64,000 nt of DNA, taken from positions 1,009-65,008 of IMG/VR virus record IMGVR_UViG_2857898870_000003; one strand, 5' to 3'. The stretch is from a virus. This document shows positions 6,901 to 37,631 of this stretch, piece after piece. The notes beneath the pieces were generated by a model. The model saw only the letters and a list, made by a program, of their open reading frames with translations, made no database searches and was not told the DNA's origin. Each line of letters opens with the position of its first letter. Position 1 is the first letter of the stretch. Made by a program: the position numbers and the translations under genes.

Positions 6901-9900
6901 ACAGGCCGAGTACAACGCTTACGCTGAGTGGTGCGAGGAGAATTATCATATGTCCCCGGAAGAATACGAGGCGTATGAGGAAAGCATGGTACGTGATTTC
7001 TCGGAGAAACAATTGACTGATGAGGAGCGAGGCGAGCTTGATTCGCAAATCGTGGATGAAATACAGGCCATAATTGACGAACAAAATGAAATAGACGCTA
7101 TCTTAGCGCAAAATAAACCGATAGAAAATGAAAACATTGAAGGAAATGACGAAAGCGGAGGCGATGGCTTACGCGAGGGAGGCGGCGAGGTACTGCCAAG
7201 AGAACAACTTGATCAGACCGGGGGAACTGGAGAGGTTGAGGGAAGAGAATCGGCTGGCCCCGACATTGATCGCACGGATGGAGCTACACAAGAAGGCTCA
7301 TCAAGGGGGCTAGTTCCTTTTGTCGCTCCTTCTCCAAAGGAGAATGAGACCCCATTGGACTATGCCGAGCGCATAGTTCAGGCTAAGAGATTGCACGATG
7401 AGGAGCTAAAGGTTGACACAAACCCTTCCGAGGCGCAGAAAGAGGCCGGGAATTACAAGAAAGGGCACATAAAGATAAACGGTTTCGATGTTTCCATAGA
7501 ACAGCCCGTTGGTTCCGTCCGTTCAGGTAAGGACGCTAGCGGAAAGGAGTGGTCGCAGGTCATGAATAACACTTACGGTTACATTCGAGGCACTGAAAGT
7601 GTGGATGGTGATCATATAGACGTATTCCTAGGTCCGGATATGAATAGTGACATGGTGTATGTCGTGGATCAGGTGAATACTGATGGCTCATTCGATGAGC
7701 ATAAGGTTATGATGGGATTCTCTTCCTTGGAAGACGCAAGGTCCGCTTACTTGTCAAACTATGGGGAAGGTTGGCAAGGGTTAGGCAACATTACCGGGGT
7801 AGCGTTGGATGAGTTCAAGAAATGGATTGATTCTTCAATCCGGAAGACCAAACCGTTCTCTGAATATAAAGGAATTAAACGGGAGGAAGATATTGCCCCC
7901 CGAAAAGTAAAGAAATTGTCTTTGGTTGATAAAGACGATTATATAACCTCCGCAGAGCGGAAGCATATAAAAGCGTTTCTGGAGAGTGGATTGAAAGAGG
8001 CAAGGGTAAACAACTCTATCTATGAGATTTCTAATATTGGTGATGATGGTGTTTATGAGATCGTAAGGCGGTTTAACTATACCGATCCATTGACCTTGGT
8101 GAAAGATGAGAACGGTAAACTAGTTAATAAGCGAGGGGAGGGTGAACATGTTATAAGGGTAAAGCCCACTTTTGAGGAGATAAGGCCGGATAGTGGTATT
8201 CGTTTCCGAGAAGTAAAAGATAAGAATGGCGAAAAGTCCTTGGTTGGGTTACATAATATCAGTGAAGAAAAACTTCGAAAAGCATTGAGACAAGGAGGCT
8301 TCGCCAATCCGAGTGCGGCCGTTATAGACATATCCAGACAATCGCATACTGGCTATGGTTCCATATCGCTTGTACTTCCCTCTTCCATGATTGAGAAACG
8401 TACTGGAAAAAATGCTGGTACTTGGAGTCAAGACGCATGGACACCCATTTATCCAACTATAGAGAGGCAGTTTTCAGGGAAAGGCAGTGACGCATTTTCA
8501 AAAGACTTGCAAAAACTTCCAGAGGAAATGCGGTCGACAACCAAAAGTGGGATGAACAGCTATATGGATGGAAGAGGCGAGGATAGTCTTGCTTATATGT
8601 ATTTATATGAGCAAGGTAAAGCTCCGGAAATAGCCCGTACAAAGCCTTCATATCCGGAGAAAACAAGAACCGAAGTTGAAGATGCCACAAATGGATCGTT
8701 CTCTATGAGTGGTTTGTCTGACAAGCAATTGTCCCGTCTGAAAGATGCCTATATGGAATATAAAGGATTTAGTACGGAAGGTTACAATGAGGCGATAAAA
8801 CTTCGTAGAGCCAAGCTTGAAGAAGCTATAGGGAAAATGAATCCAAGATCAATCCTCTACGAGAAACGTAAGATGGATCTTGAACGAATCGATAAGTATG
8901 GGTTTGATTACTCTGCGGTAGAAAGCTTCATGAAATCAGTACGTGATGACATAAGCAATTCCGACAAGGTTGATGCTCACGGAACAATGCGCGATTCATG
9001 GAATTTCATAGAAGAAAATGGAATGCGAGGCGATTTTAACAAGTGGCTCGATAAATTGAATGAAAGGTACGGGATAAAAGAAATTATTTTTAACGGATTT
9101 ACTCCTTCCGGTATAAGAAAGTACATTCCTAACACCTTGGAGAACGTATCCAAGTTTATGAAGAAGCAAGGAAGAAGCGCATCTGTCGGAATAGGTGCGT
9201 CGTTCCAAAATTTCGCTGCGAGTTTGCTGGATGCTAAAGGCTCACTGAAAGATATACGCAAGGATAAAGGGAAGCTGACTACGGATCATGCTGACGTTGA
9301 CGCTTTCAGGGATAAATGGTCTAAGGTATTTCATGAGTTAGGAGAAAAATTGCAACCGGATGCCAAAGGATATGACGACTACGGTCTATACAGGTTGGCG
9401 GAAGCGGCACGAAGCAAAGACCCTCAAAAATATATAAAGGAAGAATATGGGATAGATTTTTCTGATGAGGATGTGAAGACGCTGAATGAGATGGTGGATG
9501 CCATAAGGAATGAATATCCGGCAATGTACTTCGAGACTAAGTTTGAACGTCCTGTATATTTGGAGGAATTTGCTGCCGCTGTAGTCCCGGATAACGTAGA
9601 TGGTGACATTCGTAAGGCGATATACGATGCGGGTTTGAAAATATTCACTTATAAAGCCGATGATGAGATATCGAGAAATGAGGCAGTTAAGCAAGCCTCA
9701 GAAATTGATGGCGTTCGTTTTCGTTCTATAGGTGATAAAGGTGCTGCTAATTTAAATAAGGCTGAAACTATTGAATCCTCAATCAACGATTGGTCAAACA
9801 AGCTTAATACCCCTGTCAGGGTAATCCATGACGTGGACGATATAACCGATACGGATGAGAATATGTTGGCCCGTAAGAGAGATTCCAAAGGCTGGTATGA

Positions 9901-12900
9901 TACTTCTACCGGGGAGATAGTCATAGTATCACCTAATTCCACGTCCGTAGGTGACGCTCAAAGGACTTTCCTCCATGAGGTGGTAGGGCATCATGGGTTA
10001 CGTGAGCTATTCGGGGATGATTTCGATACTTTCCTTGATAACGTGTATCGGAACGCCAACGAGGATATCCGGAAAAATATCATAGACCGGACTAAAGGCA
10101 ATCCTCTTAACTTGCGTGAGGCTACAGAGGAATACATCGCTGAATTAGCGGAACGTGGTTTCGATAACAAGGCCGAGCGTTCGTTATGGGAAAAGATCAA
10201 GGACGCTTTTCTTGATATGTTGAGAAAGGCCGGTATTAGCCTTGATTTCAAGTTATCGGATAATGACCTCCGTTATATTCTCTGGAGAAGCTATAAGAAC
10301 TTGGAGCAAGGAAACTTGATGGATGTGGCTGAGGATATCGTGATGAGAAATAGATTAGGTCTTAACAATATAAATTTGAACGAAAATGGATCAATCGAAA
10401 GAGATATTGAGCCTAAAAAAGGAAAACAACCTTCTGAAACAAAAGGTACTGGAAGGGAACTCGAGACAATCGAGGGCGTTAATGAGAACGGAAACGAAAG
10501 TGAACGAGACCATATCGACAAACCAAGGGGAGTTGAAAACGCTATTGACGGAACTGAAAACGCAACTGACCGAAATGGAAAAAAGGCTGATGGCCAAGTT
10601 GACAACGATGGAGACCAACTTGACGGAGGAGATACGGTCGATAGGAACGGAAGTGTCCGGGATGAAATCGACGGTGAGCGGACTGTCATCGGACGTGCAG
10701 GATCTGAAAACAAGGGTAGAGGCGTTGGAGAAAGCGTAAGGGAAAAGACGGATGATTTCGCTTTCGCAGAGAGAATAAAGAAAGAAAATGATAACATCCG
10801 TTTCCGGGAGGCTAAATCGGAGGTGGAGAACGAGGAGCCTTTGAATAAGGAAATGGTTGACGCTTGGGATAAAGTGGCATCTTCAGACAGTTTTAAGTTC
10901 AAAGAGGCTATGGTTGACTCTTTAACAGCTATAGATGAGTTCTTGAAATTATTGGCCAAGAAAACCAAATCGAAGATACTGGATTACGAGAACCCATATT
11001 ACGCTCTTATAGCCTTGTCTTCAAAGAATAAGGCGGATATGGATAGTTTCGACTCTAAATTCCTGAATCCTTTGAATGAGGCTATAAGGGCATTGATAGG
11101 TGATGTCTCTGAGGTGTCCAAGAAAGGTTTAAGAAGAACTTGGGATTGGTCTAAAGGGTCATTAAGGGATTTGGTTAAATATGTACAATCTAAACACGGT
11201 ATCGAGAGAAACCGTGATATGTCCGTAAGGGATGGCATAGAAACTCTTAAGGCGTTTGACGTGGACGCTTTGTCTAAAATGGGGGTTATTTCCGACTCTG
11301 ATCTTAAAAACGCTAAAAAAACAGCGGAAAAGGTTGCGGAGGAAAAGGGGAGTGAGGCTTACAAAAAGACGTATGACAAGGTTTTTGGCAAGGAACTAAA
11401 GAAAGGTGTTGATAAAGGTAAGGCTGAGCGTTCTGCTGAGATAGCCGCCGATTATCGGAAATCATTTGTCAAATCCGAGATCTATAACAAGGAGATGGAT
11501 AAATATAAAGAAAAGGTGACCGGAACGTTGATTGATAGGTGGGAAGATTCAAAGAAAGATGTCCTTAATAAGGATCTAGCGTGGGACGAGGAACAAAAGG
11601 AGTTGGATAGAGAGGCATTGTCATTCCAATGGAAGTTAGGCGATAATTCTTATGGTGTGATTCTAGGAAAGGACTATAGTGGTTTGTCTTCAGTGTTTAA
11701 GCCTTCGGAGGATGGAGCGAATAAAGATAAATGGCTTTCTGACGCTTATGATTTCGTGAGAGATTATGAGTCTACCCACAATATGGTTTTAGTCGATAAT
11801 CTATGGGATAAGGTTCATAACGTGTCAGAGTATACGTTAAGGAGGCAGTATGAGTCCGGGCTGATAAGCAAGTCCTATATGGATAAGAACCTTTCCCGGT
11901 TTAAGTACTTTATCCCGTTGAGAGGTTTCTCCGATAATATTGCCTCCGATGTTTATGATTACATAGACGCTACGGAGATAAAGATGGGAAACCCAGTGAA
12001 GACCGCTAAAGGACGTATCTCTGAGGCTGATAATCCTTTCGCTGGTTTGATACACGTTGGATACGGATCTATTACCGCAGGAAATAGGAACTTGGCGAAA
12101 CAACGTTTTCTCAATTTAGCTAGCAATCATGACACTGGCGGTCTTATTACCATAGATAATATCTGGGTTCGAAATGTCGGTACCGAGGAAAATCCGGAAT
12201 GGGTGGAGTCCATTCCGCAAATACCGGATAACGCTTCTGGCGAGGAAGTGGCCAAGGCGGTGAAAGATCATGAGGAAATGATGAGAGAGCTTAGAGAGGA
12301 AGGTAAGGCTGAGCTGATTAAAGGAGGTCGATCGGATATACCATATAAAACATTGTATGACCAGAGAAGCCAGCATCAGGTACAGGTTTTCGTGGGAGGT
12401 AACAGGTATGTCATGACCGTTAATGGCAATCCCCGATTGGCGCAAGCGGTAAATGGATTGACTAATCCGGATGTGAAGGATGATCTCGCTTACGTCGTAG
12501 CTAGGAACTTGAAAACATTTATGGCCGGAGCTTTTACGTCCAAGAACGTGGCGTTCTCGTTTGCCAACTTGATAAGAGATACGCCTTATGCCAATAACTC
12601 CGTGTTTGTGACGGAGAATTTTAGGTATTTCAAGGATTTTTCAGGGAACCAGAGGCGAGCGTTATTTGGACTTCGGAGTTTAGGTCGTAATCTGTATAAA
12701 TACAGAAGGGGAGAGATAGATATTTCTGATAAGGAACAGGCGATATTTAAGGAGTTCATGGATAATGGAGGGGCTACTGGATATACGTTCGTGGAGACGC
12801 AAAAGGAATACGCCAAGGATTTAGCGAACAAGTTAGAGAAACTTTCGGATGGTAATATTGGGAAGTTATCCCCAAAACAACTAGTCTCTACTGTATTTGA

Positions 12901-14263
12901 GTGCTTTGAGTTCATGGGTAACGTAGCGGAACTTGTGAACCGATATGCGGCGTATAAGACGAGCCGGGAACATGGAAGATCCATTGACCGGTCAATCAAT
13001 GATGCCAAGGAGGTATCGGTTAACTTTAACAAGAAAGGTGCCGGAAAGAAAACGAAGAGCGATAAATGGTATATTAACACAGCAGCGTGGATATCTGAGT
13101 ATGGAAGAGATTGGGTGTTGTTCTTTAACGCCGCCGTTCAAAGCATGTATAAGGAATATTCCATGCTGAGAAATCATCCAATTAAAGGAATAAGTTCCCG
13201 TATAGCCCCACTAATATTCATGGGATCGTCTGTCTCGTTGCTCAATAATCTGTTTATGCCTATGCTCTTCGCTTATTTGGGATGGGATAGCGATGATGAT
13301 GATAGGGATTATTTTGATTCATTGAGCGATCATGAGAGACAGAATAATATATGTATTCGTTTGACTCATGGTCGTTGGCTCAAGATTCCGTTATCTCCGG
13401 AGCTTGCCAATTATTTCAAGATCGGAGATATAATTGCCGGGCAATTATCCGGTAAAAGGGAAGTGGAGGCTATGGATGTCGTTAAGACAGGGATTGATAT
13501 GGTGTCCCCGTTAAACATAAACTGGGAGTATGATAGTTGGAAGTTCGCTCTAAATCTCCTGCCTACGGTGGTTCAGCCTATCGCCCAAAACGCCTCTAAC
13601 GTGAATTTTATGGGTAATCCTATCTATAAGACCTCGATGAACAAGGCTAATGATTATGATCCGGAGTACACCAAGGTCTACAGGAGTACCAGTACCACCA
13701 TGGTCGAGTTGTCGAGGGCGTTTAACTCGTTAACGGGTGGCGACGATGTCAAGAGAGGCACGAGCTTTAATCCGGCTACTTGGCAGAACATTCTTTCTGG
13801 ATATACAGGAGGTTTTGGTACTGTGGCATTGGGCGTGTCTGATTTAGTCCTTGATATGCTGTCCGGAGAGGATGGGGATATGCCGGTGAGTCGTTATCCC
13901 CTGTTAAGCCGTTTCTTGACCGGAGGGGACAAGGATTTGAAGCTGAGCCGGATGAATTCCATATATAACAAGAAGGTCGTAGACTTTGTCACGGGAATGG
14001 ATCATGATTACAAGGGATATCTAAAGAAAATACAGGATACTTCCGTGGACGATTTCGACAGGGCCGGATATATGGTCAAGTTAAACCAGCTGACCGGTAG
14101 CGATGATTATAGGAGATCCATGGAATTGTCACAGTACGTGAAGGCCATATCCGATATGGAGAGGTTCCTTCGTGAGGTCGGTAGCGATAATGATTCCCTA
14201 GAGAATCAAGTGTATGAGCTAAAGCTACGGGCGTTGGAGATATTTGAGGATGAGGATGAGTGA
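3938..14263 (+). CDS. Giant 3441-aa multidomain protein (candidate packaged/ejected polyvalent-type protein); function unknown
   Basis: Uninterrupted 10,326-nt ORF starting 5 nt after the previous gene. Contains an N-terminal tandem ~28-aa repeat (KLYDALKSDGYTDLGDFSSFEGKL / MLYEVLKKDGWQDLGDFSQFESKL), a HEVVGHH (HExxxH, non-canonical) motif near aa 2000, long acidic/Gly-rich disordered linkers, and many globular segments. Size is comparable to phage polyvalent or virion-injected giant proteins (established concept), but no domain could be assigned with confidence. Confidence 0.65.
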   Translation: MEGNNTRKLYDALKSDGYTDLGDFSSFEGKLKDSGKREMLYEVLKKDGWQDLGDFSQFESKLGYAPINNENIKETDYDSQSSVNPAPIALRQEVDVPMKDQSEYVNPWTNSPDYNFESLRKKGKIETATPPPPTEYEKDSSFMNTWAGDAIQKLNAGGADLGAGIFGVLDKESKGLESATGGLISRGGAFKDISDRFKADAEFSRARSNRYNGKDFTDLWKEGNYMGAIGDIALQGVESLPMSIGAMAATMAGAPAAGLAGIGSIVASQKYDDLDQNNPNMEEFAKVSNAILTGTAESLSEMLGAGVSKAWMSTLFKTLGKEKAQEAIKRGIMGKMQEYYKKFGMFFEPVNEGIEEVSSTLAENITDKITDADPERDLTDGVLQSFVYGMGGGAYFTGTGALAKGAQYVADKIGGKQAQQPITDPNVTDQGVETPPLSRFAEAEEEGRNMTDPGDIRTASKKMEETRLSLSGMVPGLASTIESYVDDGASEAQVMSLLDGVNADARPLAEDFYADYLRISGLQDRIGDEIDNEVETYVANNITPYVTTNPEGQSIVTMATLSEGNEKIPVYVRSIEGDKAVISDNGQDRMVSAKRLSDIVEQDAGRMRRTYEDQLLATRQSELDMAMNHNPKTQLPKPGLVIWNGDNAFILQGQDENGDWIAQPAALDKETGQVAPKAGSAPAMPIAERDILALQDAMYDAQQANEVSQDIDNVTSVDSDITSVSPVAATITQPTSEIETEGAIDQIAQPSNVENPSMVMREDGTPDFVSSGTDMALDFLHDKYGEKMPRKIEVTRKSFDESLKKASDALEKAQEAYDDAPIGKEDKAEAALIKARQEYEAIKVEADFWANLDDDIKEASKKPGDVIAKEISVIGDPMSGEELAAMMLANGAIKLTRDSYKKETGAGNNETARMFGLFASPEKGGVNIERAGEILELADRENGTNFFDENDTNAGRDAIIEVLSSAHTRGDLIDYVKRNREAIAERERQAEYNAYAEWCEENYHMSPEEYEAYEESMVRDFSEKQLTDEERGELDSQIVDEIQAIIDEQNEIDAILAQNKPIENENIEGNDESGGDGLREGGGEVLPREQLDQTGGTGEVEGRESAGPDIDRTDGATQEGSSRGLVPFVAPSPKENETPLDYAERIVQAKRLHDEELKVDTNPSEAQKEAGNYKKGHIKINGFDVSIEQPVGSVRSGKDASGKEWSQVMNNTYGYIRGTESVDGDHIDVFLGPDMNSDMVYVVDQVNTDGSFDEHKVMMGFSSLEDARSAYLSNYGEGWQGLGNITGVALDEFKKWIDSSIRKTKPFSEYKGIKREEDIAPRKVKKLSLVDKDDYITSAERKHIKAFLESGLKEARVNNSIYEISNIGDDGVYEIVRRFNYTDPLTLVKDENGKLVNKRGEGEHVIRVKPTFEEIRPDSGIRFREVKDKNGEKSLVGLHNISEEKLRKALRQGGFANPSAAVIDISRQSHTGYGSISLVLPSSMIEKRTGKNAGTWSQDAWTPIYPTIERQFSGKGSDAFSKDLQKLPEEMRSTTKSGMNSYMDGRGEDSLAYMYLYEQGKAPEIARTKPSYPEKTRTEVEDATNGSFSMSGLSDKQLSRLKDAYMEYKGFSTEGYNEAIKLRRAKLEEAIGKMNPRSILYEKRKMDLERIDKYGFDYSAVESFMKSVRDDISNSDKVDAHGTMRDSWNFIEENGMRGDFNKWLDKLNERYGIKEIIFNGFTPSGIRKYIPNTLENVSKFMKKQGRSASVGIGASFQNFAASLLDAKGSLKDIRKDKGKLTTDHADVDAFRDKWSKVFHELGEKLQPDAKGYDDYGLYRLAEAARSKDPQKYIKEEYGIDFSDEDVKTLNEMVDAIRNEYPAMYFETKFERPVYLEEFAAAVVPDNVDGDIRKAIYDAGLKIFTYKADDEISRNEAVKQASEIDGVRFRSIGDKGAANLNKAETIESSINDWSNKLNTPVRVIHDVDDITDTDENMLARKRDSKGWYDTSTGEIVIVSPNSTSVGDAQRTFLHEVVGHHGLRELFGDDFDTFLDNVYRNANEDIRKNIIDRTKGNPLNLREATEEYIAELAERGFDNKAERSLWEKIKDAFLDMLRKAGISLDFKLSDNDLRYILWRSYKNLEQGNLMDVAEDIVMRNRLGLNNINLNENGSIERDIEPKKGKQPSETKGTGRELETIEGVNENGNESERDHIDKPRGVENAIDGTENATDRNGKKADGQVDNDGDQLDGGDTVDRNGSVRDEIDGERTVIGRAGSENKGRGVGESVREKTDDFAFAERIKKENDNIRFREAKSEVENEEPLNKEMVDAWDKVASSDSFKFKEAMVDSLTAIDEFLKLLAKKTKSKILDYENPYYALIALSSKNKADMDSFDSKFLNPLNEAIRALIGDVSEVSKKGLRRTWDWSKGSLRDLVKYVQSKHGIERNRDMSVRDGIETLKAFDVDALSKMGVISDSDLKNAKKTAEKVAEEKGSEAYKKTYDKVFGKELKKGVDKGKAERSAEIAADYRKSFVKSEIYNKEMDKYKEKVTGTLIDRWEDSKKDVLNKDLAWDEEQKELDREALSFQWKLGDNSYGVILGKDYSGLSSVFKPSEDGANKDKWLSDAYDFVRDYESTHNMVLVDNLWDKVHNVSEYTLRRQYESGLISKSYMDKNLSRFKYFIPLRGFSDNIASDVYDYIDATEIKMGNPVKTAKGRISEADNPFAGLIHVGYGSITAGNRNLAKQRFLNLASNHDTGGLITIDNIWVRNVGTEENPEWVESIPQIPDNASGEEVAKAVKDHEEMMRELREEGKAELIKGGRSDIPYKTLYDQRSQHQVQVFVGGNRYVMTVNGNPRLAQAVNGLTNPDVKDDLAYVVARNLKTFMAGAFTSKNVAFSFANLIRDTPYANNSVFVTENFRYFKDFSGNQRRALFGLRSLGRNLYKYRRGEIDISDKEQAIFKEFMDNGGATGYTFVETQKEYAKDLANKLEKLSDGNIGKLSPKQLVSTVFECFEFMGNVAELVNRYAAYKTSREHGRSIDRSINDAKEVSVNFNKKGAGKKTKSDKWYINTAAWISEYGRDWVLFFNAAVQSMYKEYSMLRNHPIKGISSRIAPLIFMGSSVSLLNNLFMPMLFAYLGWDSDDDDRDYFDSLSDHERQNNICIRLTHGRWLKIPLSPELANYFKIGDIIAGQLSGKREVEAMDVVKTGIDMVSPLNINWEYDSWKFALNLLPTVVQPIAQNASNVNFMGNPIYKTSMNKANDYDPEYTKVYRSTSTTMVELSRAFNSLTGGDDVKRGTSFNPATWQNILSGYTGGFGTVALGVSDLVLDMLSGEDGDMPVSRYPLLSRFLTGGDKDLKLSRMNSIYNKKVVDFVTGMDHDYKGYLKKIQDTSVDDFDRAGYMVKLNQLTGSDDYRRSMELSQYVKAISDMERFLREVGSDNDSLENQVYELKLRALEIFEDEDE

Positions 14264-27093: not shown

Positions 27094-29070
27094 ATGGAAA
27101 GAATTCAGTTAAGAAGAGATACGTCGACAAGATGGAGAGAGGTGAACCCTATTCTCATGGAAGGTGAGGTCGGATTTGAGACGGATACCAGATTGAGAAA
27201 GATCGGTGATGGCGTGAACCGTTGGAATGACCTTGAATATTTGAAGGCAGAAGGTATTGTACAAGAAATTGGGAATAGCGAAGATGTATCCATTAGCCAG
27301 AAAACGCTTTCTAATGAAACATTTTTGAATCGTGTGAACTTAAAAAGCTCAAATGATTTAGACTTGTGTACTCAAATTGGAATTTATACATGGATAAATG
27401 AAGAGGTTCCTATAAATTCCCCGGTACAAGGCTTAGGTTTAATGAACGTATTTCCCTATCTCCTAGATAAAGATGTCTTAAAACATCGAATTGTCCAGCA
27501 AGTCTTCGATTACTATGGGAGAATGTATGTCAGGTATAAAGGTAGTGGAGAATGGGGTGATTGGAACAGGCCTGCTGAAAAATCCATATTGGATAACACC
27601 GTAGACAATACTTTCACTTACAGAAGAAGTTTAAATTCTGATAACAATTTAGATGAGATCTCTCATATCGGAATATACTCGTGGATATCGAGCTCGGTTC
27701 CTCAAAACGCACCAGTTAGTTACGGAGGCGTACTTCTATTATTCCCTTATTTCCGGACGGAGTATACCGAGTTAAGCCGTACCGTGCAAATAGTCATAGC
27801 CTCAAGCGGGAAGATGTTCTCCCGATATCGTACCACATCGGGTTGGGGTTCTTGGGTCTCTGGAGGATCTGGAGGATCGGGAGAGACTTATGAGGATCGA
27901 TTGATGAGGGCGTTTTTAGATAAAACTTTCACGACGTGGCAACCCGAAGGTAATATACCTCGTAATTCACAAGATTTGTCATATTACAGTGGGGCTATAA
28001 GTGGGCTTCCTTATAGCTCCGTGTTTAATTTTGGTAACGACATTTACTATAACCGTGGTCTCTCCTCCTTTTTTTCGGCGGTAAAGAATAAGGGAAGTGT
28101 TTTATATAGTAAAGGTTACGGACAGGACACTAGAAGAGGCTCTTATTATGGTACCGTTTGCTCTACTTTTGGATCTTATATATCTGGTCAAAAGATATAT
28201 TATACCACGACGGAGATTCCGGAGGTTGCCGAGGAGATCACCTATGTTGATATCGAGCAAATAAACATAGGTGATATTTTGTGGACTTCCGGGCATTGTA
28301 AGGTTGTTTCCTCTGTCAATGTGGATGAGGATGGCATCTATAATATCGTCGTTACGGAGCAAGGAGGATATAATATGATGGAAACGGTTTACGATAAAGA
28401 TGGGTTTGAGAAAATCCTTAAAGGGATAGATCCTCATGATAAGAGGGTCTTTAAATTATACCGCTTCCAAAATCAAAGGATACCGGTTTTGCCTAAAATA
28501 GAATATAGCGAGAATGTCATTTCTGAATATGGGGATAGGACCTATTTTGAGCAAGGGCAAGATGTCTTTATAGCGGTCAAAGACGGGGATCATATTAATA
28601 TTTCTGATGGAAGCAATACGAATAGATACCTTTTATCGGGAATGTCCTCTAAAATCGTGAACGGGATCGAGCTATATAATGTGCGACCATATCTATCAGG
28701 GACGGCAGAGTATGATTTGTATACCGATAATGATGATCTTCACGCTAAACTATCTGTGATAGACATGGGTGATGTTATCTTGGATGATATTACCGTGAGG
28801 TTGACAGGATACAGCGACAATGTAAAACCTAGCTGGTATAACGTAATATACCTAATAGAAGCGGAGGAAGGAGAGTATCCTTATTTTCCGGCCCCAGAAG
28901 GATACATGGGGCATAATGCCGTGATGTGCAAGGATTTCATAAAAGACAATACTTTTAACGTAATCATGAGGGATGTGAAGGATTATGCCTCTGGATATTA
29001 CGTCAGATGTTATTATGAAACAAGATTTGGATTAGCTTATAAGGATAGTAATATCATTATGATAAAATAA
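27094..29070 (+). CDS. Tail fiber protein, paralog A (658 aa)
   Basis: Its N-terminal 50 aa (ERIQLRRDTSTRWREVNPILMEGEVGFETDTRLRKIGDGVNRWNDLEYL) are clearly homologous to the N-terminus of 29080-31395. The remainder is unrelated, with duplicated internal segments (NNLDEISHIGIYSWISSSVPQNAPV / SNDLDLCTQIGIYTWINEEVPINSPV). Confidence 0.5.
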   Translation: MERIQLRRDTSTRWREVNPILMEGEVGFETDTRLRKIGDGVNRWNDLEYLKAEGIVQEIGNSEDVSISQKTLSNETFLNRVNLKSSNDLDLCTQIGIYTWINEEVPINSPVQGLGLMNVFPYLLDKDVLKHRIVQQVFDYYGRMYVRYKGSGEWGDWNRPAEKSILDNTVDNTFTYRRSLNSDNNLDEISHIGIYSWISSSVPQNAPVSYGGVLLLFPYFRTEYTELSRTVQIVIASSGKMFSRYRTTSGWGSWVSGGSGGSGETYEDRLMRAFLDKTFTTWQPEGNIPRNSQDLSYYSGAISGLPYSSVFNFGNDIYYNRGLSSFFSAVKNKGSVLYSKGYGQDTRRGSYYGTVCSTFGSYISGQKIYYTTTEIPEVAEEITYVDIEQINIGDILWTSGHCKVVSSVNVDEDGIYNIVVTEQGGYNMMETVYDKDGFEKILKGIDPHDKRVFKLYRFQNQRIPVLPKIEYSENVISEYGDRTYFEQGQDVFIAVKDGDHINISDGSNTNRYLLSGMSSKIVNGIELYNVRPYLSGTAEYDLYTDNDDLHAKLSVIDMGDVILDDITVRLTGYSDNVKPSWYNVIYLIEAEEGEYPYFPAPEGYMGHNAVMCKDFIKDNTFNVIMRDVKDYASGYYVRCYYETRFGLAYKDSNIIMIK

Positions 29071-29079: not shown

Positions 29080-31395
29080 ATGGACAGAGTATTACAAAGA
29101 AGAGATACGGCATCGAACTGGGCTAAGTTTAACCCTGTTCTTTCGGAAGGGGAGATAGGAATCGTCATCGACGGAGGTAAAGGTTATAAGATAGGTGACG
29201 GTGTCACACATTGGAATGATCTGGAATACCCCTCTAATCCAACCAGTGTTGTGGGCACGATCGGAGATAGCGAGGTTGCCGTGATTAACCAGAAAGGCGT
29301 ATCCTCTTTGGTCGGCCTAGACACGTACCCTGTATTCTCCGATACCAAGCCCTACGTAAAAGGCGAGATCGTTAATTACGGCGGTCTCTTGTACGAGTTC
29401 ACGGCTGATCATGAGGCGGGGGCGTGGATTGGCACGGACGCAAGGGAGACGAGTTTGAAGGAGGAGGTGACAAAAGAGTTGACCATTAAATCTCAAGGAT
29501 TTACTTGTAGTAATCCAATTACTAATGAAATAATAAAGGAGATATTTTATGCTAAAAAAGATTTTCCTGTATATTTCTCATTAGCATTAAACTACCTTGC
29601 GACTGATAATAAATATCACAATAGATTATATGTAATCAATAAATATACTGATAAAGTAGTAGATTCAATATTTGATTTTTCTTACGATACTTTTGATGAA
29701 TGTAAAGTTGGATTAACTGATGATATATATTTAAATGGATCTAATCCTATAAGATCAGCTGTAGCTATTAATAATAATTATAGAAGGACTAATGAAAGAA
29801 TTGAAGATAATATTTTTACAAGTTATTATAGTCTTGATGCTTGCCCTAATATAAAAAACTATATTGAGAGTAGTTTGAAACTTACTGATGATAGTATAAC
29901 TAATTTGTATATTAAAGAATTAGTAGTTCCAGATATAAATATTGGTGATATTAAAAATATTAGATTGAATTTATGTATATTTGTTGGTAGTAAATATTAT
30001 AATGCTTGCTATATTGATCTTAATCCAACAGGTGTTTATACTGTTTTTGAGAATGCATATGATACGTTCGATGAATGTGCCAATAATTGTAATGGTGTTA
30101 TTTATAATGAAAAAAATAAAGCAGGTGCTTTAATAGAATACTCAGGTATAAAAAATTTTACTTTGACTAGGTCTCCTTTATGGAACCATGATCTTACTAT
30201 AGATTTTGCTCCTACTATAAAAAATTACCTAAACAAGTTTACAATAGAAAAAATAAATGATTATTTTGATGTTACTGATAATTTGATTTTTAAGACAAGT
30301 GATATGATATTAAAGGATCAGTTTTTTAATGGTTCTTCTTATATTGAAAGTAAAGGTTATTCTGTATCGCAACCTATATTATGTAAAGCTGGTATAACTT
30401 ATAAATACAATTTTGATAAAGCAGGAATGGGTAATAATATTAACTGCTGTAAAGTTGATAAATATGGTTTAAATCCTGTTGCATTTACTGTTAATTTATC
30501 CCCAGATGATAGTACAGCTACATTTTCATTTACAGAGGATACCTATGTTAGGATTAACTGTGGTAGAAACTTAGATTCTATTATTCTTACGGAGGAGTCT
30601 ATATTCCCTGATCCTTTTTCCTACTCTCAAGGAGGTAATATATTAAATGAAAGTTTCATTCTTAATGAAAGTCAAAAAAAACAGGTTGAAAATATATCGG
30701 AAAATGCAATAAATAATTTAGCTAATAAAATTATAGCATGGGACGGAGATAGTATTGCTGCTGGCGACAAAGGTACACCTTGGGCAAGCATTATTATGTC
30801 AAAAAATAAAATGATAGGAAAGAATTTTTCAGTTGGTGGAGCTACCATAACTTCGGGTACAACAACAAGTAGCGGTATTAATAGACACTGGGTTAGTTAT
30901 AATATAGATACTATACATCAACAATATCCAGCTTTAGATTATTTAATTCTTGAAGGAGGTTCCAATGATGCAGACTTAGAATCTCAAATCCAAATTGGTA
31001 TATTTGACCCACTCGATTTTGATGGGCCATTTGATAATACCACATTCCATGGCGCTTTAGATTACTTATTCTCTAAAGCTATTACATACTACCCGGGCAC
31101 TAAGATAGGATTTATTATAGCTGTTAAAATGGGTAAAGGTAAATATTCAAGTGTTTCAAATAGGAGGGATTTCTTTGATAAGATAAAACTTGTTTGTGAA
31201 AAGTGGGGTATTCCTTATATAGACTTATGGAAAACAAGCCCAATGAACCCAAATATGAGTGTATATTGGAATCCTGATTTAACTCCAGAAGAAAATATAG
31301 CTCAAGGTTATTATTATGCAGATAGTCAACACCCTACTACTGTAGGTTATAATTATACTGCCCCAATGATTGAAAGTTGGATTAAAACTCTGTGA
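29080..31395 (+). CDS. Tail fiber protein, paralog B (771 aa) with a C-terminal SGNH/GDSL hydrolase domain
   Basis: Shared N-terminal anchor domain (DRVLQRRDTASNWAKFNPVLSEGEIGIVIDGGKGYKIGDGVTHWNDLEY). Extremely AT-rich central segment with internal YDTFDEC repeats. C-terminal SGNH blocks: IIAWDGDSIAAGD (GDS block I), LILEGGSNDA (block III GxND), DSQHPT (block V DxxH). Confidence 0.55.
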   Translation: MDRVLQRRDTASNWAKFNPVLSEGEIGIVIDGGKGYKIGDGVTHWNDLEYPSNPTSVVGTIGDSEVAVINQKGVSSLVGLDTYPVFSDTKPYVKGEIVNYGGLLYEFTADHEAGAWIGTDARETSLKEEVTKELTIKSQGFTCSNPITNEIIKEIFYAKKDFPVYFSLALNYLATDNKYHNRLYVINKYTDKVVDSIFDFSYDTFDECKVGLTDDIYLNGSNPIRSAVAINNNYRRTNERIEDNIFTSYYSLDACPNIKNYIESSLKLTDDSITNLYIKELVVPDINIGDIKNIRLNLCIFVGSKYYNACYIDLNPTGVYTVFENAYDTFDECANNCNGVIYNEKNKAGALIEYSGIKNFTLTRSPLWNHDLTIDFAPTIKNYLNKFTIEKINDYFDVTDNLIFKTSDMILKDQFFNGSSYIESKGYSVSQPILCKAGITYKYNFDKAGMGNNINCCKVDKYGLNPVAFTVNLSPDDSTATFSFTEDTYVRINCGRNLDSIILTEESIFPDPFSYSQGGNILNESFILNESQKKQVENISENAINNLANKIIAWDGDSIAAGDKGTPWASIIMSKNKMIGKNFSVGGATITSGTTTSSGINRHWVSYNIDTIHQQYPALDYLILEGGSNDADLESQIQIGIFDPLDFDGPFDNTTFHGALDYLFSKAITYYPGTKIGFIIAVKMGKGKYSSVSNRRDFFDKIKLVCEKWGIPYIDLWKTSPMNPNMSVYWNPDLTPEENIAQGYYYADSQHPTTVGYNYTAPMIESWIKTL

Positions 31396-32915: not shown

Positions 32916-33206
32916 GGCTTCCGTGGCTCACACCCGGGAAACCTCTGATAATAGAATGAATGCGTTATATGAATAACAAGGGCTGACGTTTTTTTGTTCA
33001 TGATAATTTATATTAGTTTGATGGTGACTTCGTGAGAACGAGCCGGAAAGGGAGGATAAAGAAAAAGAATCTTCCCTAAATAATCGGATCGGAAGTTTGA
33101 TTATTTTTTCATGCCACGCACGACGGGAAGATTCTTATATGTCTTTCTGCCGTGCATTTTTTGTGCCCGGCTTTGATAGTAAAACAAACCACGAAATAAA
33201 AAGTTT

Positions 33207-33503
33207 ATGAATAAGGTGGAAATTTTTTACAAAAAAGTGATAGAGGCAGTCTGCAAGGAGTGCGGGACCGATCCGGTAATGATGTTTAGCAACAACAAGG
33301 AGAGGAACGTTGACGCTAGGGGAGTGGCTATAACCATACTGGCCGATCGCAAGTTGAGCGACAATATCATATCCGATCTGACTGGAATGACGAGGCAAGC
33401 CGTGAACCGGATGCGTAACTTGTACCCGGACAGGATAAGGAGGAGTTACTACCTGAGGAGGACGGTGGAGAGCGTCAAAGAGGAGCTATCCGGTACGGTC
33501 TGA
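33207..33503 (+). CDS. Small HTH-containing protein (98 aa)
   Basis: LSDNIISDLTGMTRQAVNRMRN resembles a sigma-region-4/LuxR-type helix-turn-helix. Confidence 0.35.
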   Translation: MNKVEIFYKKVIEAVCKECGTDPVMMFSNNKERNVDARGVAITILADRKLSDNIISDLTGMTRQAVNRMRNLYPDRIRRSYYLRRTVESVKEELSGTV

Positions 33504-33691
33504 GGGTGCGTTATGTTGTAAGGCATGTGATTTGTCTATGAAAAAATTTTCATATAACAAAATTTTGTGCGACATTTGCGGAATAAAAGGTGATTTTTAT
33601 AGCCTCGTCAAGTAACCAGCCTTGGCTGAGGCTTTACTTTTAACACCTTATATCTTAAAAAATGTATATTCTAAATAGATCATGAAAAAAT

Positions 33692-34960
33692 ATGACAGCG
33701 ATCGTAGGAGTTTTAAATAAACATGCTGTAGCTATTGCGGCGGATAGCGCAATTACTACAACGGGTCTATCTAGACGAAAGGTCTTTAATCGGGGGAATA
33801 AAATATTCACGTTGTCTAAATTTCATCCAGTAGGCGTTATGATTTATAATAACGCTGCATTAGAGGGAGTGCCTTGGGATGTTATAATTAAACTTTATAG
33901 AAGGTCTTTGGGAGATAAATCTTTTCCAAAATTGGAGGATTATAAAAAAGATTTCATAAGATTTATCTATAAAAAGAATTTTTTTATAGATAAATCAATT
34001 CAGTTAAGCTATTTAAGTGCGTCTGTTCAGTTTATCATTACTAATCTTATCGGGAATGAGGCTGGTCGATTGTGTGGAGGTATAAGGGATGACAATCATG
34101 ATGATTTTTTGTCACAGATGAAAAGATTAATGAGACAGTATTCTGATTTATATTCTTCCACAAAACAATGTGAGTCTCTAAGTGGTTATAAGATTGATGA
34201 TTTCGTTAAGTATTCATCAAAAGTTTTTGATGACCTAATCAATTCTCTAAATCAGATATCTCCAGATAAGGAATTTAGGGAATATGCGGAGACTCTTATT
34301 TTCAATATGATAAAATCAGAGCATGATAATCTCCCTTTTACAGGTATAGTTTTTGTTGGTTATGGTGAAGATGATATATATCCTAAATTGGATCCTGTTA
34401 ATATTTCATTGGTCATAGACAACAAGCTTCGATATTATGATGATATAAATAATTCTGTTGAGATATCGGATAAAAATTCATCTGCGATTCAGCCTTTCGC
34501 TCAAACTGATGTTATGGATACAGTTTTACTAGGTATCGATCCCAAATTAGAAAAGTTGTTTATTGAAAATTTTAAAAAGACGATAACTAAATATGGAAAC
34601 ATGATCGCAGAAGGTGTAGATAGAATTGATCCTCAAATGGCCGCCAAGATACGGGACTTGGATATAAGCGGAGTTGTCAATGAATTTAGAATATTGAATA
34701 GGGAATTGAAAAGAAAGCAATATATTATACCTCTAGTAAGGGCTATCTCTTCTTTAGAGAAAGAAGATTTAATAGATGTGGCAGAAAGTTTGATATCATT
34801 GACTTCCTTAAAAAGAAGGATGACCTTTGAGGAAGAGAGTGTGGGCGGTCCGGTAGATGTGGCTGTTATTTCTAAGGGGGACGGATTTATTTGGATAAAA
34901 AGAAAACATTATTTTGACCCGAATTTAAATGATCATTTTTTTAAAAACTATTATAGATAA
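33692..34960 (+). CDS. Proteasome-beta/HslV-like Ntn-hydrolase domain protein with a ~220-aa C-terminal extension (422 aa)
   Basis: N-terminus MTAIVGVLNKHAVAIAADSAITTTG...NKIFTL aligns by eye to the proteasome-beta/HslV N-terminus (TTIVGV..G.V.AADSR.T.G.....KI..I). Thr2 is the candidate N-terminal nucleophile after Met removal, Asp18 matches Asp17 and Lys37 matches Lys33. AT-rich gene with its own downstream terminator. Confidence 0.5.
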   Translation: MTAIVGVLNKHAVAIAADSAITTTGLSRRKVFNRGNKIFTLSKFHPVGVMIYNNAALEGVPWDVIIKLYRRSLGDKSFPKLEDYKKDFIRFIYKKNFFIDKSIQLSYLSASVQFIITNLIGNEAGRLCGGIRDDNHDDFLSQMKRLMRQYSDLYSSTKQCESLSGYKIDDFVKYSSKVFDDLINSLNQISPDKEFREYAETLIFNMIKSEHDNLPFTGIVFVGYGEDDIYPKLDPVNISLVIDNKLRYYDDINNSVEISDKNSSAIQPFAQTDVMDTVLLGIDPKLEKLFIENFKKTITKYGNMIAEGVDRIDPQMAAKIRDLDISGVVNEFRILNRELKRKQYIIPLVRAISSLEKEDLIDVAESLISLTSLKRRMTFEEESVGGPVDVAVISKGDGFIWIKRKHYFDPNLNDHFFKNYYR

Positions 34961-34965
34961 TACAT

Positions 34966-35181
34966 ATGGGAACGTTATTACAGTCTGATGCAGGTTATTT
35001 GTTCGCTCTTGATAATGATGTTATCATGAATGAACCTAATGAATTGGATGCCTATATAAAATCAAAAAGGATCCAAGAATGTAAAGATTCATTAGAGGAT
35101 GGTATGAGCCTTGATGAAATATCGGAGGTCGTTTCCAATAGGTTAGTTGATCTTATAAAAAAACAATTAACAAGGGAATAG
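34966..35181 (+). CDS. Small acidic protein (71 aa) co-transcribed with the Ntn-hydrolase-like gene
   Basis: Starts 6 nt after the upstream stop and is followed by a strong terminator. Composition DAYIKSKRIQECKDSLEDGMSLDEISEV. Confidence 0.4.
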   Translation: MGTLLQSDAGYLFALDNDVIMNEPNELDAYIKSKRIQECKDSLEDGMSLDEISEVVSNRLVDLIKKQLTRE

Positions 35182-35204
35182 TATTCTATATTTCTTTATA
35201 ACAA

Positions 35205-35242
35205 AAAAGCGTCGTCAACACAAATTGGCGGCGCTTTTTTTG
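35205..35242 (+). terminator. Rho-independent terminator of the Ntn-hydrolase two-gene cassette
   Basis: Stem gcgtcgtc (35209-35216) / ggcggcgc (35227-35234), with two G-U wobble pairs in RNA, followed by TTTTTTT (35235-35241). Confidence 0.55.
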
Positions 35243-35377
35243 TCTCATCCCCTTCCGCAAAGAACTAGCAACAACCTCGCAACAAGCTAGCAAGGAGATA
35301 TTTATTTAGCAAAGCCCTTCTCATGATTTTTGTCGTGTCCGGTAATGGTGCCGGATTAACGACAAAAATTAAAGATA

Positions 35378-36352
35378 ATGGATAGAAATTATTTTATCGG
35401 TACTCCCGAAGGAGGCAATTCCGGTGGAAGTAAGTTTGATATCATGGCCTTTCTCCCGAGCTTGATGGGCGGTGGTGGAAAATCATTGGACCCCAATTTG
35501 GTAGCGGCTTTGATGAACAATAAGGGCAATCAAGACGCTTGGGGCGGTGGTGGTTGCTGGTGGATCTGGATCATCCTCCTGTTCTTCGTATGGGGAGGCT
35601 GGGGTGGCAACGGCTTCGGCAACAACGGGGCTAACGGATTACCGGCTCAATTGAACAATGACGCTGGTCGTGAATTGTTGATGAACGCTATCCAAGGAAA
35701 CGGAACGGCTATCAGCCAATTGTCATCTTCCTTGAATTGCTCAACCCAACAATTACAAAACGCTATCTGCCAGATCCAAGGACAGATCCAGAGCGTGGGT
35801 AACCAAGTAGGCATGAGTTCCCAACAAATCATTAACGCCGTCCAAAGTGGTAACAATCAATTATTGAGCCAGATCGCCGAGTGCTGCTGCACGGTTAACA
35901 ACAACATCACTAAGATGGGCTACGAGAACCAATTGGCTAGCTGCAACCAGACAAACACGCTGGTGAATACGATGAACAACAACACGTTGACTCTCCGTGA
36001 CTCAGGTCTGCAGAACACCCGTGATATCATCAACGAGGTTCGTGATTTCAAGAGCTTGTATCAACAAGACAAGATGGATCGCTTGACGGCGGAGAACCTA
36101 GCCTTGAAAGGACAGATCTCCCAAAGCAACCAGAACGCCTATTTCGCCGCTACTCTACAGGCGCAGACCGCCCCTCTAGGTAACGCCTTGGGTGATTTGA
36201 GCTCAAGATTGGCCAAGATCGAGTGTAACCAGCCGGAGGTGGCAAAGGTTCCTTACTCCCCCGTGGTAGGCATACCCACTTGCGTGGCCGCCCAGTACGG
36301 ATTAGGCCTAGGTCTCGGTAACTGGGGAAACTTCGGCAACGGATGGGGATAA
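35378..36352 (+). CDS. Gly/Gln/Asn-rich single-pass membrane protein with Cys clusters (324 aa)
   Basis: WGGGGCWWIWIILLFFVWGGWGG hydrophobic segment flanked by Gly runs. Long Q/N-rich low-complexity region with CCC and CxQ motifs. C-terminal GLGLGLGNWGNFGNGWG. Confidence 0.45.
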   Translation: MDRNYFIGTPEGGNSGGSKFDIMAFLPSLMGGGGKSLDPNLVAALMNNKGNQDAWGGGGCWWIWIILLFFVWGGWGGNGFGNNGANGLPAQLNNDAGRELLMNAIQGNGTAISQLSSSLNCSTQQLQNAICQIQGQIQSVGNQVGMSSQQIINAVQSGNNQLLSQIAECCCTVNNNITKMGYENQLASCNQTNTLVNTMNNNTLTLRDSGLQNTRDIINEVRDFKSLYQQDKMDRLTAENLALKGQISQSNQNAYFAATLQAQTAPLGNALGDLSSRLAKIECNQPEVAKVPYSPVVGIPTCVAAQYGLGLGLGNWGNFGNGWG

Positions 36353-37325: not shown

Positions 37326-37631
37326 ATGGGAACATATAGCAGAAAACTGAAGGAGCTGATCGAGGAATTCGACGCCATGGAAGACGAGGATATGTTGGAA
37401 CTGGCTAAGGAGGCCTATAAGCTTGGCTGTAAGGAAGGAAAGCGGAAGGCCATGGAAGGCTATGGCAACCGCATGGAGGAAGACGAAGACGATGAGTTCG
37501 AGGACGACGACGAGTTCCGTGAGATGTGGGAGCGTGGCGGCTACGGCAACCGTGGCGGCGGTCGTGGATCATCCGGGGGAGGCTATGGCAATCGCCGGGG
37601 AGTAAGAGGATCCGGACGTGGACGTAGGTAA
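37326..37631 (+). CDS. Acidic protein with C-terminal RGG/Gly-Arg-rich tail (101 aa)
   Basis: EEDEDDEFEDDDEF followed by GGYGNRGGGRGSSGGGYGNRRGVRGSGRGRR. RGG boxes are nucleic-acid-binding low-complexity motifs (established). Confidence 0.4.
   Translation: MGTYSRKLKELIEEFDAMEDEDMLELAKEAYKLGCKEGKRKAMEGYGNRMEEDEDDEFEDDDEFREMWERGGYGNRGGGRGSSGGGYGNRRGVRGSGRGRR

Follow-up and report, generated by a model that had tools for sequence, protein, structure and literature searches.

In the 64,000-nucleotide stretch of DNA that we analyzed as a whole (the window), a cargo slot of a Bacteroides prophage holds a two-gene cassette in which a gene for a predicted proteasome-like threonine protease is followed by a tiny partner gene. 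The first open reading frame (33692-34960, + strand) encodes a product of 422 aa, whose N-terminus reads MTAIVGVLNKHAVAIAADSAITTTG...NKIFTL, and after a spacer of 5 nt comes a second one of 71 aa (34966-35181, + strand). Both had been called from the letters alone in an earlier, sequence-only reading and both were recovered here; because thousands of full-length homologs exist, they are, on comparative grounds, real genes and no chance ORFs. The features of the locus are as follows:

33207-33503, + strand: backbone gene for a 98-aa HTH (DnaA_C/Cro-like) protein, with weak Pfam matches to HTH_26 and Bac_DnaA_C
33601-33643, + strand: upstream hairpin (33601-33633) with a U-rich tail at the left boundary of the slot (terminator scan; -16.5 kcal/mol, z = -3.5)
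33636-35203, no strand assigned: exchanged low-GC cargo segment, containing the two-gene cassette only (blastn breakpoints, GC)
33692-34960, + strand: gene for the 422-aa putative proteasome-beta-like Ntn (Thr1) hydrolase, probably of PMI type, matching phrog_5990
33692-33988, + strand: core N, aa 1-99, with strands S1-S4, helices H1-H2, and Thr2/Asp18/Lys37 (predicted secondary structure, conservation, alignments)
33989-34327, + strand: insertion 1, aa 100-212, five predicted helices at the H2-to-S5 "pore loop" site, hypervariable
34328-34540, + strand: core middle, aa 213-283, with strands S5-S8 and helix H3; G223, G225, P231, and Q271 invariant
34541-34753, + strand: insertion 2, aa 284-354, three predicted helices between H3 and H4, hypervariable
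34754-34957, + strand: core C, aa 355-422, with H4, S9-S10, and H5; the best-conserved segment
34966-35181, + strand: 71-aa partner gene with a conserved C-terminal amphipathic helix (ORF, homologs, control comparison)
35201-35243, + strand: terminator-like hairpin (GC core 35209-35234, U-run 35235-35241) at the right boundary of the slot (-21.2 kcal/mol, z = -7.0)

The left side of the slot is marked by the 98-aa HTH gene, which belongs to the phage backbone and lies outside the cassette: in the sister prophages, an identical protein is encoded upstream of each of the three kinds of cargo, and it also occurs in phage BF1-TP2. A 98-aa regulator encoded upstream in satellite Javan103 was considered as its counterpart and rejected, as the two proteins are unrelated. 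When the region is compared by blastn with phage BF1-TP2 and nine sister prophages, the breakpoints fall at 33635/33636 and 35203/35204, left-side homology with relatives stopping at 33589-33635, and between them the GC content falls to 0.32, from 0.45 and 0.49 on the two sides, in agreement with the drop below the flanking phage genes that had been noted from the sequence. Sister prophages fill the same slot either with a gene for a SocA_Panacea antitoxin (E 2.6e-23) and another gene, or with a pair encoding a 299-aa and a DUF4325/STAS-like protein (also described as a GHKL/STAS-like pair), in which no PADLOC system was recognized and only a weak partial DrmA match was seen; with other cargo in its place, the cassette is dispensable in these close relatives. 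The proposal of a horizontally acquired cargo in a moron position by the lysis genes is therefore on firmer ground than the sequence-only reading could know, because the cassette is exchanged at exact breakpoints, and we consider it highly probable that the two genes are mobile cargo. The strong terminator credited to the cassette is indeed a stable hairpin with a U-run (-21.2 kcal/mol, z = -7.0), but it is not the cassette's own: the right hairpin (~35201-35243) is kept in all relatives whatever cargo they carry and is thus phage backbone. The promoter scan found neither a sigma-70-like nor a Bacteroides-type (TTTG...TAnnTTTG) promoter at the cassette, no Rfam family scored above threshold within 33000-35600, and neither cassette protein matched any model of PADLOC-DB v2.0.0 at E values up to 1.

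Searches of the 422-aa protein against Pfam, NCBIfam, and PADLOC, and by phmmer/hmmsearch against the PDB, returned nothing significant, the sole signal of the PDB sequence searches being a marginal two-piece match to the Thermoplasma acidophilum proteasome beta subunit (E 0.15). In alignments with this subunit, Thr2, Asp18, and Lys37 correspond to T1, E/D17, and K33, as had been proposed from the sequence; the Thr and the Asp also align with those of Escherichia coli HslV, and hhalign against one HslV sequence aligned 26 residues only. Among 134 divergent relatives, Asp18 and Lys37 never vary (134/134 each), residue 2 is Thr in 131 and Ser in 3, and this Thr/Ser directly follows Met1 in all relatives aligned, so that there is no propeptide. 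The conservation values and the structure model rest on an alignment of these 134 sequences, each of which represents a cluster at 50% identity; a shallower one, with 47 sequences of no less than 45% identity, had given an AlphaFold pLDDT below 50 in the conserved N- and C-terminal core and was discarded.

The model (pTM 0.92) and the fold searches describe a single proteasome-beta fold, from residue 1 to residue 422, with two internal helical insertions that are placed confidently relative to the core. The helices of insertion 1 (aa 101-208) lie between H2 (81-94), itself preceded by H1 (62-73), and the strand at 217-223; those of insertion 2 (284-353) lie between H3 (272-280) and H4 (357-377). 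Strands at 388-394 and 398-403 belong to core C, while residues 18 to 53 form short strands and loops only, with no helix inserted between S3 and S4. Both insertions are poorly conserved, with a mean conservation of 0.24, no position at least 90% conserved and a family length range of 99-141 aa for the first, and 0.27 and 60-80 aa for the second. The last 68 residues, core C, are the best-conserved part of the core (0.73), carry the motif E-(S/T)-V-G-G-P-V-D-V-A-x-I-S-K-G-D-G-F-x-W-I-K-R-K, and align to T. acidophilum beta residues 168-186. On this basis, it is nearly certain that the protein has the fold and catalytic triad of a proteasome/HslV-type Ntn hydrolase; the expectation that structure prediction would reveal such a fold has been borne out, the fold spanning the whole chain. 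The latter point runs against the other architecture that had been put forward, in which an Ntn catalytic domain of ~200 aa would be joined at its C-terminal side to an independent domain of ~220 aa acting as effector or partner. At the sequence level, where alignment with HslV or proteasome beta is confined to the first 26-39 residues and Pfam is silent, such a fusion looked natural, but one fold along the whole chain, in the model and the fold searches, refutes it, and it is almost certainly wrong.

This architecture has a described counterpart, where the sequence-only reading could match none. Fuchs, Alva & Lupas 2021 (PMC8665760) gave a computational description of proteasome homologs with multiple insertions (PMI), of which PMI-4 has a long insertion after H1/H2 and a second one between H3 and H4, exactly the two sites seen here, together with the catalytic triad and no propeptide. 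It is their largest new family and occurs in phages, in Euryarchaeota, and throughout the major bacterial phyla, Bacteroidetes among them, with no function assigned; PMI-3, with insertions at the same sites, is a small family that does not extend to Bacteroidetes or phages, and a helical S3/S4 insertion separates PMI-5, PMI-6, and connectase from PMI-4 (PMC8665760). The 422-aa protein has the alpha-beta-beta-alpha fold, the triad, the bare N-terminal Thr, both insertion sites, and no helix between S3 and S4. Its homologs form 5,644 clusters at 50% identity, spread over many phyla, some archaea, phages, and satellites, and when set against Table 1 of PMC8665760 this large family resembles PMI-4 in its wide phylum range and its presence in Bacteroidetes and phages. 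The protein is thus likely a PMI-4 member, an assignment made by matching features and not by direct sequence comparison. Two differences are worth mentioning: the published PMI-4 models show insertions without core contacts, whereas ours (pTM 0.92) places them confidently, and for the newly catalogued families, those other than HslV, Anbu, BPH, and connectase, neither a function nor an informative gene context was reported (PMC8665760), while the present locus shows a small partner gene that is conserved and a hotspot for prophage cargo. The family is therefore already known by its 2021 computational description, and what appears to be new is the conserved partner ORF and the bounded prophage slot. 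In the literature we found no functional study of this protein's family and no proteasome-like defense system.

Compared with the beta subunit of the 20S proteasome and with Anbu, the protein carries ~220 extra residues in its two insertions. The 20S beta subunit is accompanied by an alpha-subunit gene and removes its propeptide autocatalytically, whereas no alpha-like gene lies near the cassette and the Thr comes directly after Met1. Classical rings are doubtful because the insertions fall where subunits face the pore and where ring meets ring; insertions at such sites would hinder ring and double-ring assembly according to Fuchs et al. (PMC8665760). HslV (ClpQ) offers a Met-Thr start, the same Thr/Asp register, a bacterial origin, and the lack of an alpha subunit, but it is compact (~175 aa) and has an adjacent hslU AAA+ gene, when the present protein has 422 aa and no AAA+ gene adjacent in the window. 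Anbu has ~240 aa, and its operon families are absent from the neighbor families listed for our homologs. The Anbu operon reportedly comprises ATP-grasp, alpha-E, and transglutaminase-like genes, as Valas and Bourne are said to have described in 2008. Connectase (DUF2121) is a non-ring proteasome homolog that acts on one protein motif, and may thereby offer a functional parallel for a partner-directed enzyme. One could imagine that our protein likewise ligates specific sequences or processes peptides, the small partner being a substrate cleaved or ligated at its conserved helix. However, connectase lacks H1/H2 and has a two-helix S3/S4 insertion, the opposite of what is seen here, and the partner proteins have no conserved terminal motif across the family, which makes this proposal very improbable.

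From a genomic context perspective, the majority of the family resides on chromosomes outside phages, and some members on plasmids. Many copies sit in unremarkable chromosomal regions, as in two Pedobacter species where rplM-rpsI lies alongside, and this vicinity of ribosomal protein genes, the broad distribution including archaea, and the ATP-independent clearance roles suggested for such homologs by Fuchs et al. (PMC8665760) would fit an enzyme of housekeeping or stress proteolysis, comparable to HslV or Anbu, that a phage acquired by chance. We nonetheless hold this to be improbable: the neighbors are variable, with no conserved third gene across 57 genomes, and neither an AAA+ gene nor any other recurrent neighbor except the small partner was found around the 57 homologs; the cassette is exchanged as a low-GC unit and occurs in satellites and moron slots; and the insertions are hypervariable. 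In the same 57 genomes, counted at family loci alone, the neighbors include type I/II restriction-modification, Fic, Schlafen-AlbA_2, and IrrE-like genes and integrases.

In mobile elements, the copies of Streptococcus satellites sit at the element end, that of a Providencia phage between Q/Dam and the holin, that of a Stenotrophomonas phage beside lysis genes, and that of a Porphyromonas phage among structural genes. Such positions, on the same strand as and directly beside the lysis cassette in Bacteroides, Providencia, and Stenotrophomonas phages, would suit a protease of benefit to the phage itself, expressed with the late genes and cleaving a host protein in counter-defense, host takeover, or a lysis-linked step; no own promoter was recognized either. 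As a matter of fact, the same accessory region of sister prophages contains a Tad2-like anti-defense (anti-Thoeris) gene, and the location therefore suits a phage-side role equally well. The terminator-like hairpins that flank the cassette, its dispensability in close relatives, and the predominance of non-phage contexts in the family nevertheless render this explanation distinctly unlikely.

The operon with a small partner, another claim of the sequence-only reading, is corroborated by the tight spacing and by the conservation of the partner ORF across the family. A small downstream ORF is found at 72 of 75 family loci by a loose rule, and by a strict rule next to 54 of 62 family genes (87%) against 31 of 447 control genes (7%), the distance from protease to partner gene lying between -23 and +19 nt at most loci, often as an overlap of 1-23 nt. 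Partner homologs also lie downstream of distant family members, and their C-terminal amphipathic helix (GMSxDEISEVVSNRLVDLIKKQL here) is common to different phyla (hhalign E 7.5e-5). The acidity ascribed to the partner holds for this copy (pI 4.4) and is not a family trait, the pI ranging from 4.2 to 12. Candidate fusions of protease and partner ("Rosetta stone" proteins) were rejected, the longer family members being miscalled starts or longer insertions.

This organization, two adjacent co-oriented genes, one of them small, tightly spaced or overlapping, is that of type II-like toxin-antitoxin systems. The pair could accordingly be a selfish addiction module with no immune role, which has the protease as toxin and the small protein as labile antitoxin and stabilizes the element. 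The often overlapping genes, the highly variable surroundings, and the plasmid-borne copies are in line with this, as is the Panacea-type toxin-antitoxin pair in the same slot of sister prophages: like other two-gene morons, PanA-PanT (Panacea-domain) pairs share the slot, the junctions, the two-gene format, and the low GC. The kinship stops there, as PanA-PanT has no sequence or fold relationship with the cassette and places the antitoxin-domain gene first; in the cassette, the small gene comes second, as opposed to upstream in most type II systems. With a putative toxin as large as 422 aa in addition, we deem a purely selfish module unlikely. Toxin-antitoxin and defense roles can coexist.

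Overall, our observations suggest that a PMI-type threonine hydrolase, most likely of PMI-4, and a small helical partner form a self-contained mobile module in an exchangeable slot that acts in phage-host conflict, a reading to which we give a probability of about 0.5. The most likely form of it, we infer, is a mobile conflict module, of defense or toxin-antitoxin-like nature, whose protease is gated by the partner. Methionine aminopeptidase would expose Thr1 and thereby yield an enzyme ready to act, so that control would be needed after translation. The two insertions probably fold into a lid of helices on which substrate or trigger specificity depends, and the co-translated partner may bind through its conserved C-terminal amphipathic helix and gate the protease, serving either as a sensor or as an inhibitor/antitoxin. 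During lysogeny, the two proteins could then act in superinfection exclusion, abortive infection, or a toxin-antitoxin-like manner, a specific target being cleaved once the control of the partner is lost. Two parts of this scheme are put forward tentatively, at somewhat less than even odds: the conflict function, suggested by location as were the immunity, abortive-infection, or counter-defense roles of the sequence-only reading, and the role of the partner as regulator of the protease. Speaking against a conflict function are the absence of a PADLOC match in so abundant a family, the unremarkable chromosomal regions that hold many copies, and the failure of the scans to recognize a promoter inside the cassette. 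That the cassette would be the founding example of a very widespread and hitherto unrecognized two-component conflict system, with a non-ring protease, specificity residing in a fast-evolving lid, restraint by the partner, and cleavage of a phage or host target, is a bolder and rather doubtful extension.

If this two-component reading were true, it would provide the first proteasome homolog in prokaryotic immunity or toxin-antitoxin biology, as well as a function for the largest orphan proteasome-like family, which a coupled partner gene and a bounded cargo slot alternating with a toxin-antitoxin pair already make testable. As a defense or toxin-antitoxin effector, the protein would represent a new protease class for prokaryotic immunity, and, if monomeric and partner-directed, it might serve as a specific protease or ligase, like connectase. 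Finally, gut Bacteroides prophages commonly carry this exact 422-aa protein (2,175 collection blocks in the index), and what it does therefore bears on phage-host dynamics in the human gut.

The 422-aa protease gene and its 71-aa partner form a mobile, exchangeable two-gene unit with a conserved small partner, within a family that has already been described computationally but not functionally. The genes and the hairpins around them are arranged as follows.

33601-33633: upstream hairpin, -16.5 kcal/mol, z = -3.5
33692..34960, + strand: protease ORF, ATG start, 422 aa, beginning MTAIVGVLNKHAVAIAADSAITTTG...NKIFTL
34966..35181, + strand: partner ORF, 71 aa, after a 5-nt spacer behind the protease ORF
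~35201-35243: downstream hairpin with U-run, -21.2 kcal/mol, z = -7.0

In a scan of the window, the GC content of the cassette stretch is 0.30-0.35 versus 0.41-0.53 on both sides, and the exchanged segment stands at 0.320 between flanks of 0.451 and 0.492. The descriptive claims of the sequence-only reading, namely two ORFs, low GC and a downstream hairpin with a U-run, are thus borne out by the ORF, GC and folding-energy data; the length of its loop caused a consensus terminator scan to overlook that hairpin. Within the protease coding sequence lies a near-perfect palindrome of 37 nt (window 33960-33996), visible in blastn against the sister loci as a self-match on the reverse strand (92% identity).

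Neither protein has a match in Pfam, NCBIfam or PADLOC, and the full-length PHROGs match of the 422-aa protein is phrog_5990, of "unknown function". When PDB sequences were searched with a profile built from close homologs, the proteasome beta subunit of Thermoplasma acidophilum came up as a marginal match (E 0.15) made of two colinear segments: residues 2-39 against beta 1-35, with Thr2 on Thr1, Asp18 on Glu17 and Lys37 on Lys33, then the C-terminal motif SVGGPVDVAVISKGDGFIW against beta 168-186, ASGGMIDVAVITRKDGYVQ. With hhalign, Escherichia coli HslV aligned over the first 26 residues only, Thr on Thr and Asp on Asp. AlphaFold, given an alignment of 134 divergent representatives, produced a model with pLDDT 95.9 and pTM 0.92, where an earlier shallow-alignment model had been poor in the core.

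Elements of the 422-aa protein in the AlphaFold model
Residues 4-53: S1-S4
Residues 62-73 and 81-94: H1 and H2
Residues 101-208: insertion 1, five extra helices
Residues 217-270 and 272-280: S5-S8 and H3
Residues 284-353: insertion 2, three extra helices
Residues 357-377: H4
Residues 388-403 and 414-421: S9-S10 and H5

Since this is the canonical proteasome order, the protein is a single Ntn fold of the proteasome type, interrupted by two internal helical insertions. The sequence-only reading was largely right in its observation and correct in its proteasome/HslV-type fold call, but it misread the architecture: what it took for a catalytic domain fused to a separate C-terminal domain is one fold with internal insertions. 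The threonine-protease active site is intact and has no propeptide. At residue 2, always right behind Met1, 131 of the 134 representatives have Thr and 3 have Ser, and Asp18, Lys37, Gly223, Gly225, Pro231, Gln271, Val384, Asp389, Trp401 and Lys405 are invariant, the correspondence of catalytic residues being based on the above alignments and on conservation. Mean conservation in the same set is 0.63, 0.47 and 0.73 for the three core segments, and 0.24 and 0.27 for the insertions, which occur in all members (99-141 and 60-80 aa) without a single position that reaches 90% conservation.

Fuchs, Alva and Lupas (2021; PMC8665760), working from sequence searches and modelling, added 22 families to the proteasome-like proteins. 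The largest of these, PMI-4 (501 sequences at 90% identity), falls in the PMI ("multiple insertions") group, ranges over all major bacterial phyla including Bacteroidetes, as well as Euryarchaeota and phages, and has one long insertion behind H1/H2 and a second insertion between H3 and H4; these authors found no genomic context or co-occurrence hinting at function. Range, family size and insertion sites all agree with the 422-aa protein, whereas PMI-3, with the same insertion sites, is a small family missing from both Bacteroidetes and phages. Judged by these described features, the protein very probably belongs to PMI-4. The premise that bacterial proteasome homologs all measure 180-250 aa was therefore outdated, and a described family does match (PMC8665760); our literature searches found no later functional study of it. 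The family is large: a word-indexed search returned more than 6,300 relatives of ~430 aa, every one named "hypothetical", and an exhaustive profile search 5,644 clusters at 50% identity (3,040 with E <= 1e-30, nearly all full length). They occur in Bacteroidota, Bacillota, Pseudomonadota, Planctomycetota, Acidobacteriota, Cyanobacteria and Chloroflexota, in several archaea, in Porphyromonas, Providencia and Stenotrophomonas phages, in Streptococcus phages and satellite phages, and on a few plasmids.

A small ORF lies directly 3' of the protease gene in relatives at 66%, 64% and 45% identity, in Porphyromonas and Providencia phages and in the satellite Javan103. Overall, a partner candidate (35-81 aa, start mostly -23 to +19 nt from the stop) was found in 72 of 75 loci; under a strict rule (ATG start, 40-90 aa, start -25 to +30 nt from the stop), such an ORF follows 54 of 62 family genes versus 31 of 447 other long ORFs of the same loci. 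The partners are fast-evolving, and their pI spans 4.2 to 12, so that acidity is not a family trait. Their common feature is a C-terminal amphipathic helix, GMSxxEISExVSxxLIxxIKEQF in Bacteroidota and F/Y-x-K/R-x-x-F-P ... G-x-x-L-A-x-x-x-L-x-x-I-R-x-x-L in other phyla; the HMMs of the two groups cross-hit, hhalign connects them at E 7.5e-5, and some 40 of the 67 distinct partners can be recognised in this way. No protease-partner fusion was found among family members, and we deem it highly improbable that the protease is a connectase-like enzyme processing its partner.

The window, with its terminase-like, portal, tail-fibre, amidase endolysin and DUF6808 genes, is the genome of a tailed phage, and the exact 422-aa protein occurs in 2,175 blocks of the assembly collection on contigs of up to 518 kb, from which it follows that the element is an integrated prophage. 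Homology to the Bacteroides phage BF1-TP2 ends at 33635 and restarts at 35204; in nine sister prophages, the right junction is again 35204/35205 and left junctions fall at 33589-33635. An identical 98-aa HTH gene (33207..33503; 8,565 blocks) precedes each of three cargos.

Cargo 1: 299-aa protein, DUF4325/STAS-like protein and ~55-aa protein (in BF1-TP2 annotated as ATP-binding protein and DUF4325 protein)
Cargo 2: SocA_Panacea antitoxin-domain protein (E 2.6e-23) and uncharacterised ~160-aa protein
Cargo 3: the 422+71 cassette

The BF1-TP2 cargo is likewise low in GC (0.338). Both hairpins are part of the backbone common to relatives, so the "own terminator" ascribed to the cassette is a property of the slot. 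Cargo 2 looks like a toxin-antitoxin pair; that the cassette uses the same slot as such a pair, and lies in moron positions, suggests a role in phage-host or mobile-element conflict. We consider a pure addiction module rather unlikely. In six sister prophages (L097, L099, L101, L102, L106, L108), a Sequestin/crAss001_48 gene, which the window lacks between 32451 and 32448, lies between the endolysin and DUF6808 genes, and in one of them (L101:3420-4121) the gene also encodes a fused Tad2-like (anti-Thoeris sponge) domain (E 1.2e-17), so that the lysis region serves as an accessory region and houses anti-defence genes as well. This Tad2-like gene would favour a phage-side protease for counter-defence or host takeover, which we consider unlikely.

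A second mosaic boundary lies just past the terminator: homology to most sister prophages ends at 35342, and the next gene (window 35343-36352; ORF 35378..36352, 324 aa, Gly/Trp-rich N-terminus, Gln/Asn-rich, phrog_16490) is swapped in most of them for unrelated genes of 166-299 aa. The tail-fibre ORF 29080..31395 (771 aa; Mtd_N N-terminal, GDSL lipase/esterase C-terminal) has a GC content of 0.22-0.33 over its C-terminal two-thirds (29400-31400), and BF1-TP2 homology breaks at 29465 and restarts at 31410; this part has the look of an exchanged module for receptor binding or depolymerase activity. Upstream of the lysis genes, the presence of a 345-aa reverse transcriptase (RVT_1) in L099, L101, L106 and L108 (~1070-2540), together with Mtd_N domains in both window tail-fibre genes (27094..29070 and 29080..31395), suggests a diversity-generating retroelement in this phage group; at the equivalent position, the window shows no reverse transcriptase. 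The window also holds a 3,441-aa ORF, by far its largest (3938..14263, +), and a 101-aa ORF (37326..37631, +) whose N-terminal half is acidic and whose C-terminal tail is rich in Gly and Arg (RGG-like), GGGRGSSGGGYGNRRGVRGSGRGRR.

The pair recurs in other mobile elements. It lies between Q/Dam and holin in a Providencia phage, adjoins holin and lysozyme genes in a Stenotrophomonas phage, and sits at the distal end of Streptococcus satellites, all classic accessory positions. Across 57 reference genomes, the two genes on each side are highly diverse, with no recurrent third gene; they include, by raw count, housekeeping genes and type I/II restriction-modification genes (e.g. N6_Mtase 4+2, Eco57I 3+2, HSDR_N 3, ResIII 4), along with Fic, Schlafen-AlbA_2, IrrE-like peptidases, HTH proteins and integrases. 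Two Pedobacter species have it next to rplM-rpsI. A housekeeping protease appears quite improbable to us. In the loci of a 64%-identical homolog (L002-L005), the pair directly follows a DUF6808 gene amid umuD/umuC/SRAP, HU and radA-like genes, none of its neighbours being a recognised phage structural gene, and may lie in a prophage remnant or a different insertion context. A KAP-family P-loop NTPase gene without a PADLOC match stands ~1.4 kb downstream of the pair in a relative of 66% identity (L001:8938-10320, on a 59.5-kb contig).

Methionine aminopeptidase, by its established specificity, would cleave Met1 ahead of Thr; the nucleophile would thus be exposed from the outset, and control would have to be post-translational. 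The sites of both insertions line the pore and ring-ring interface in the proteasome, and insertions there have been argued to hinder ring and double-ring assembly (PMC8665760). Given the pTM of 0.92, the modelled insertions would pack in a defined way, probably forming a "lid" that sets specificity. Translational coupling probably keeps the partner stoichiometric with the protease; the partner would bind via its conserved helix and gate the protease, and the pair would act in phage-host or mobile-element conflict. To this partner-gated protease reading as a whole, we give a probability of about 40%. This analysis contributes the conserved partner gene, the finding that the cassette alternates with toxin-antitoxin cargo in one slot, and a measure of how large and prevalent the family is; taken jointly, they make this orphan proteasome-like family experimentally approachable.
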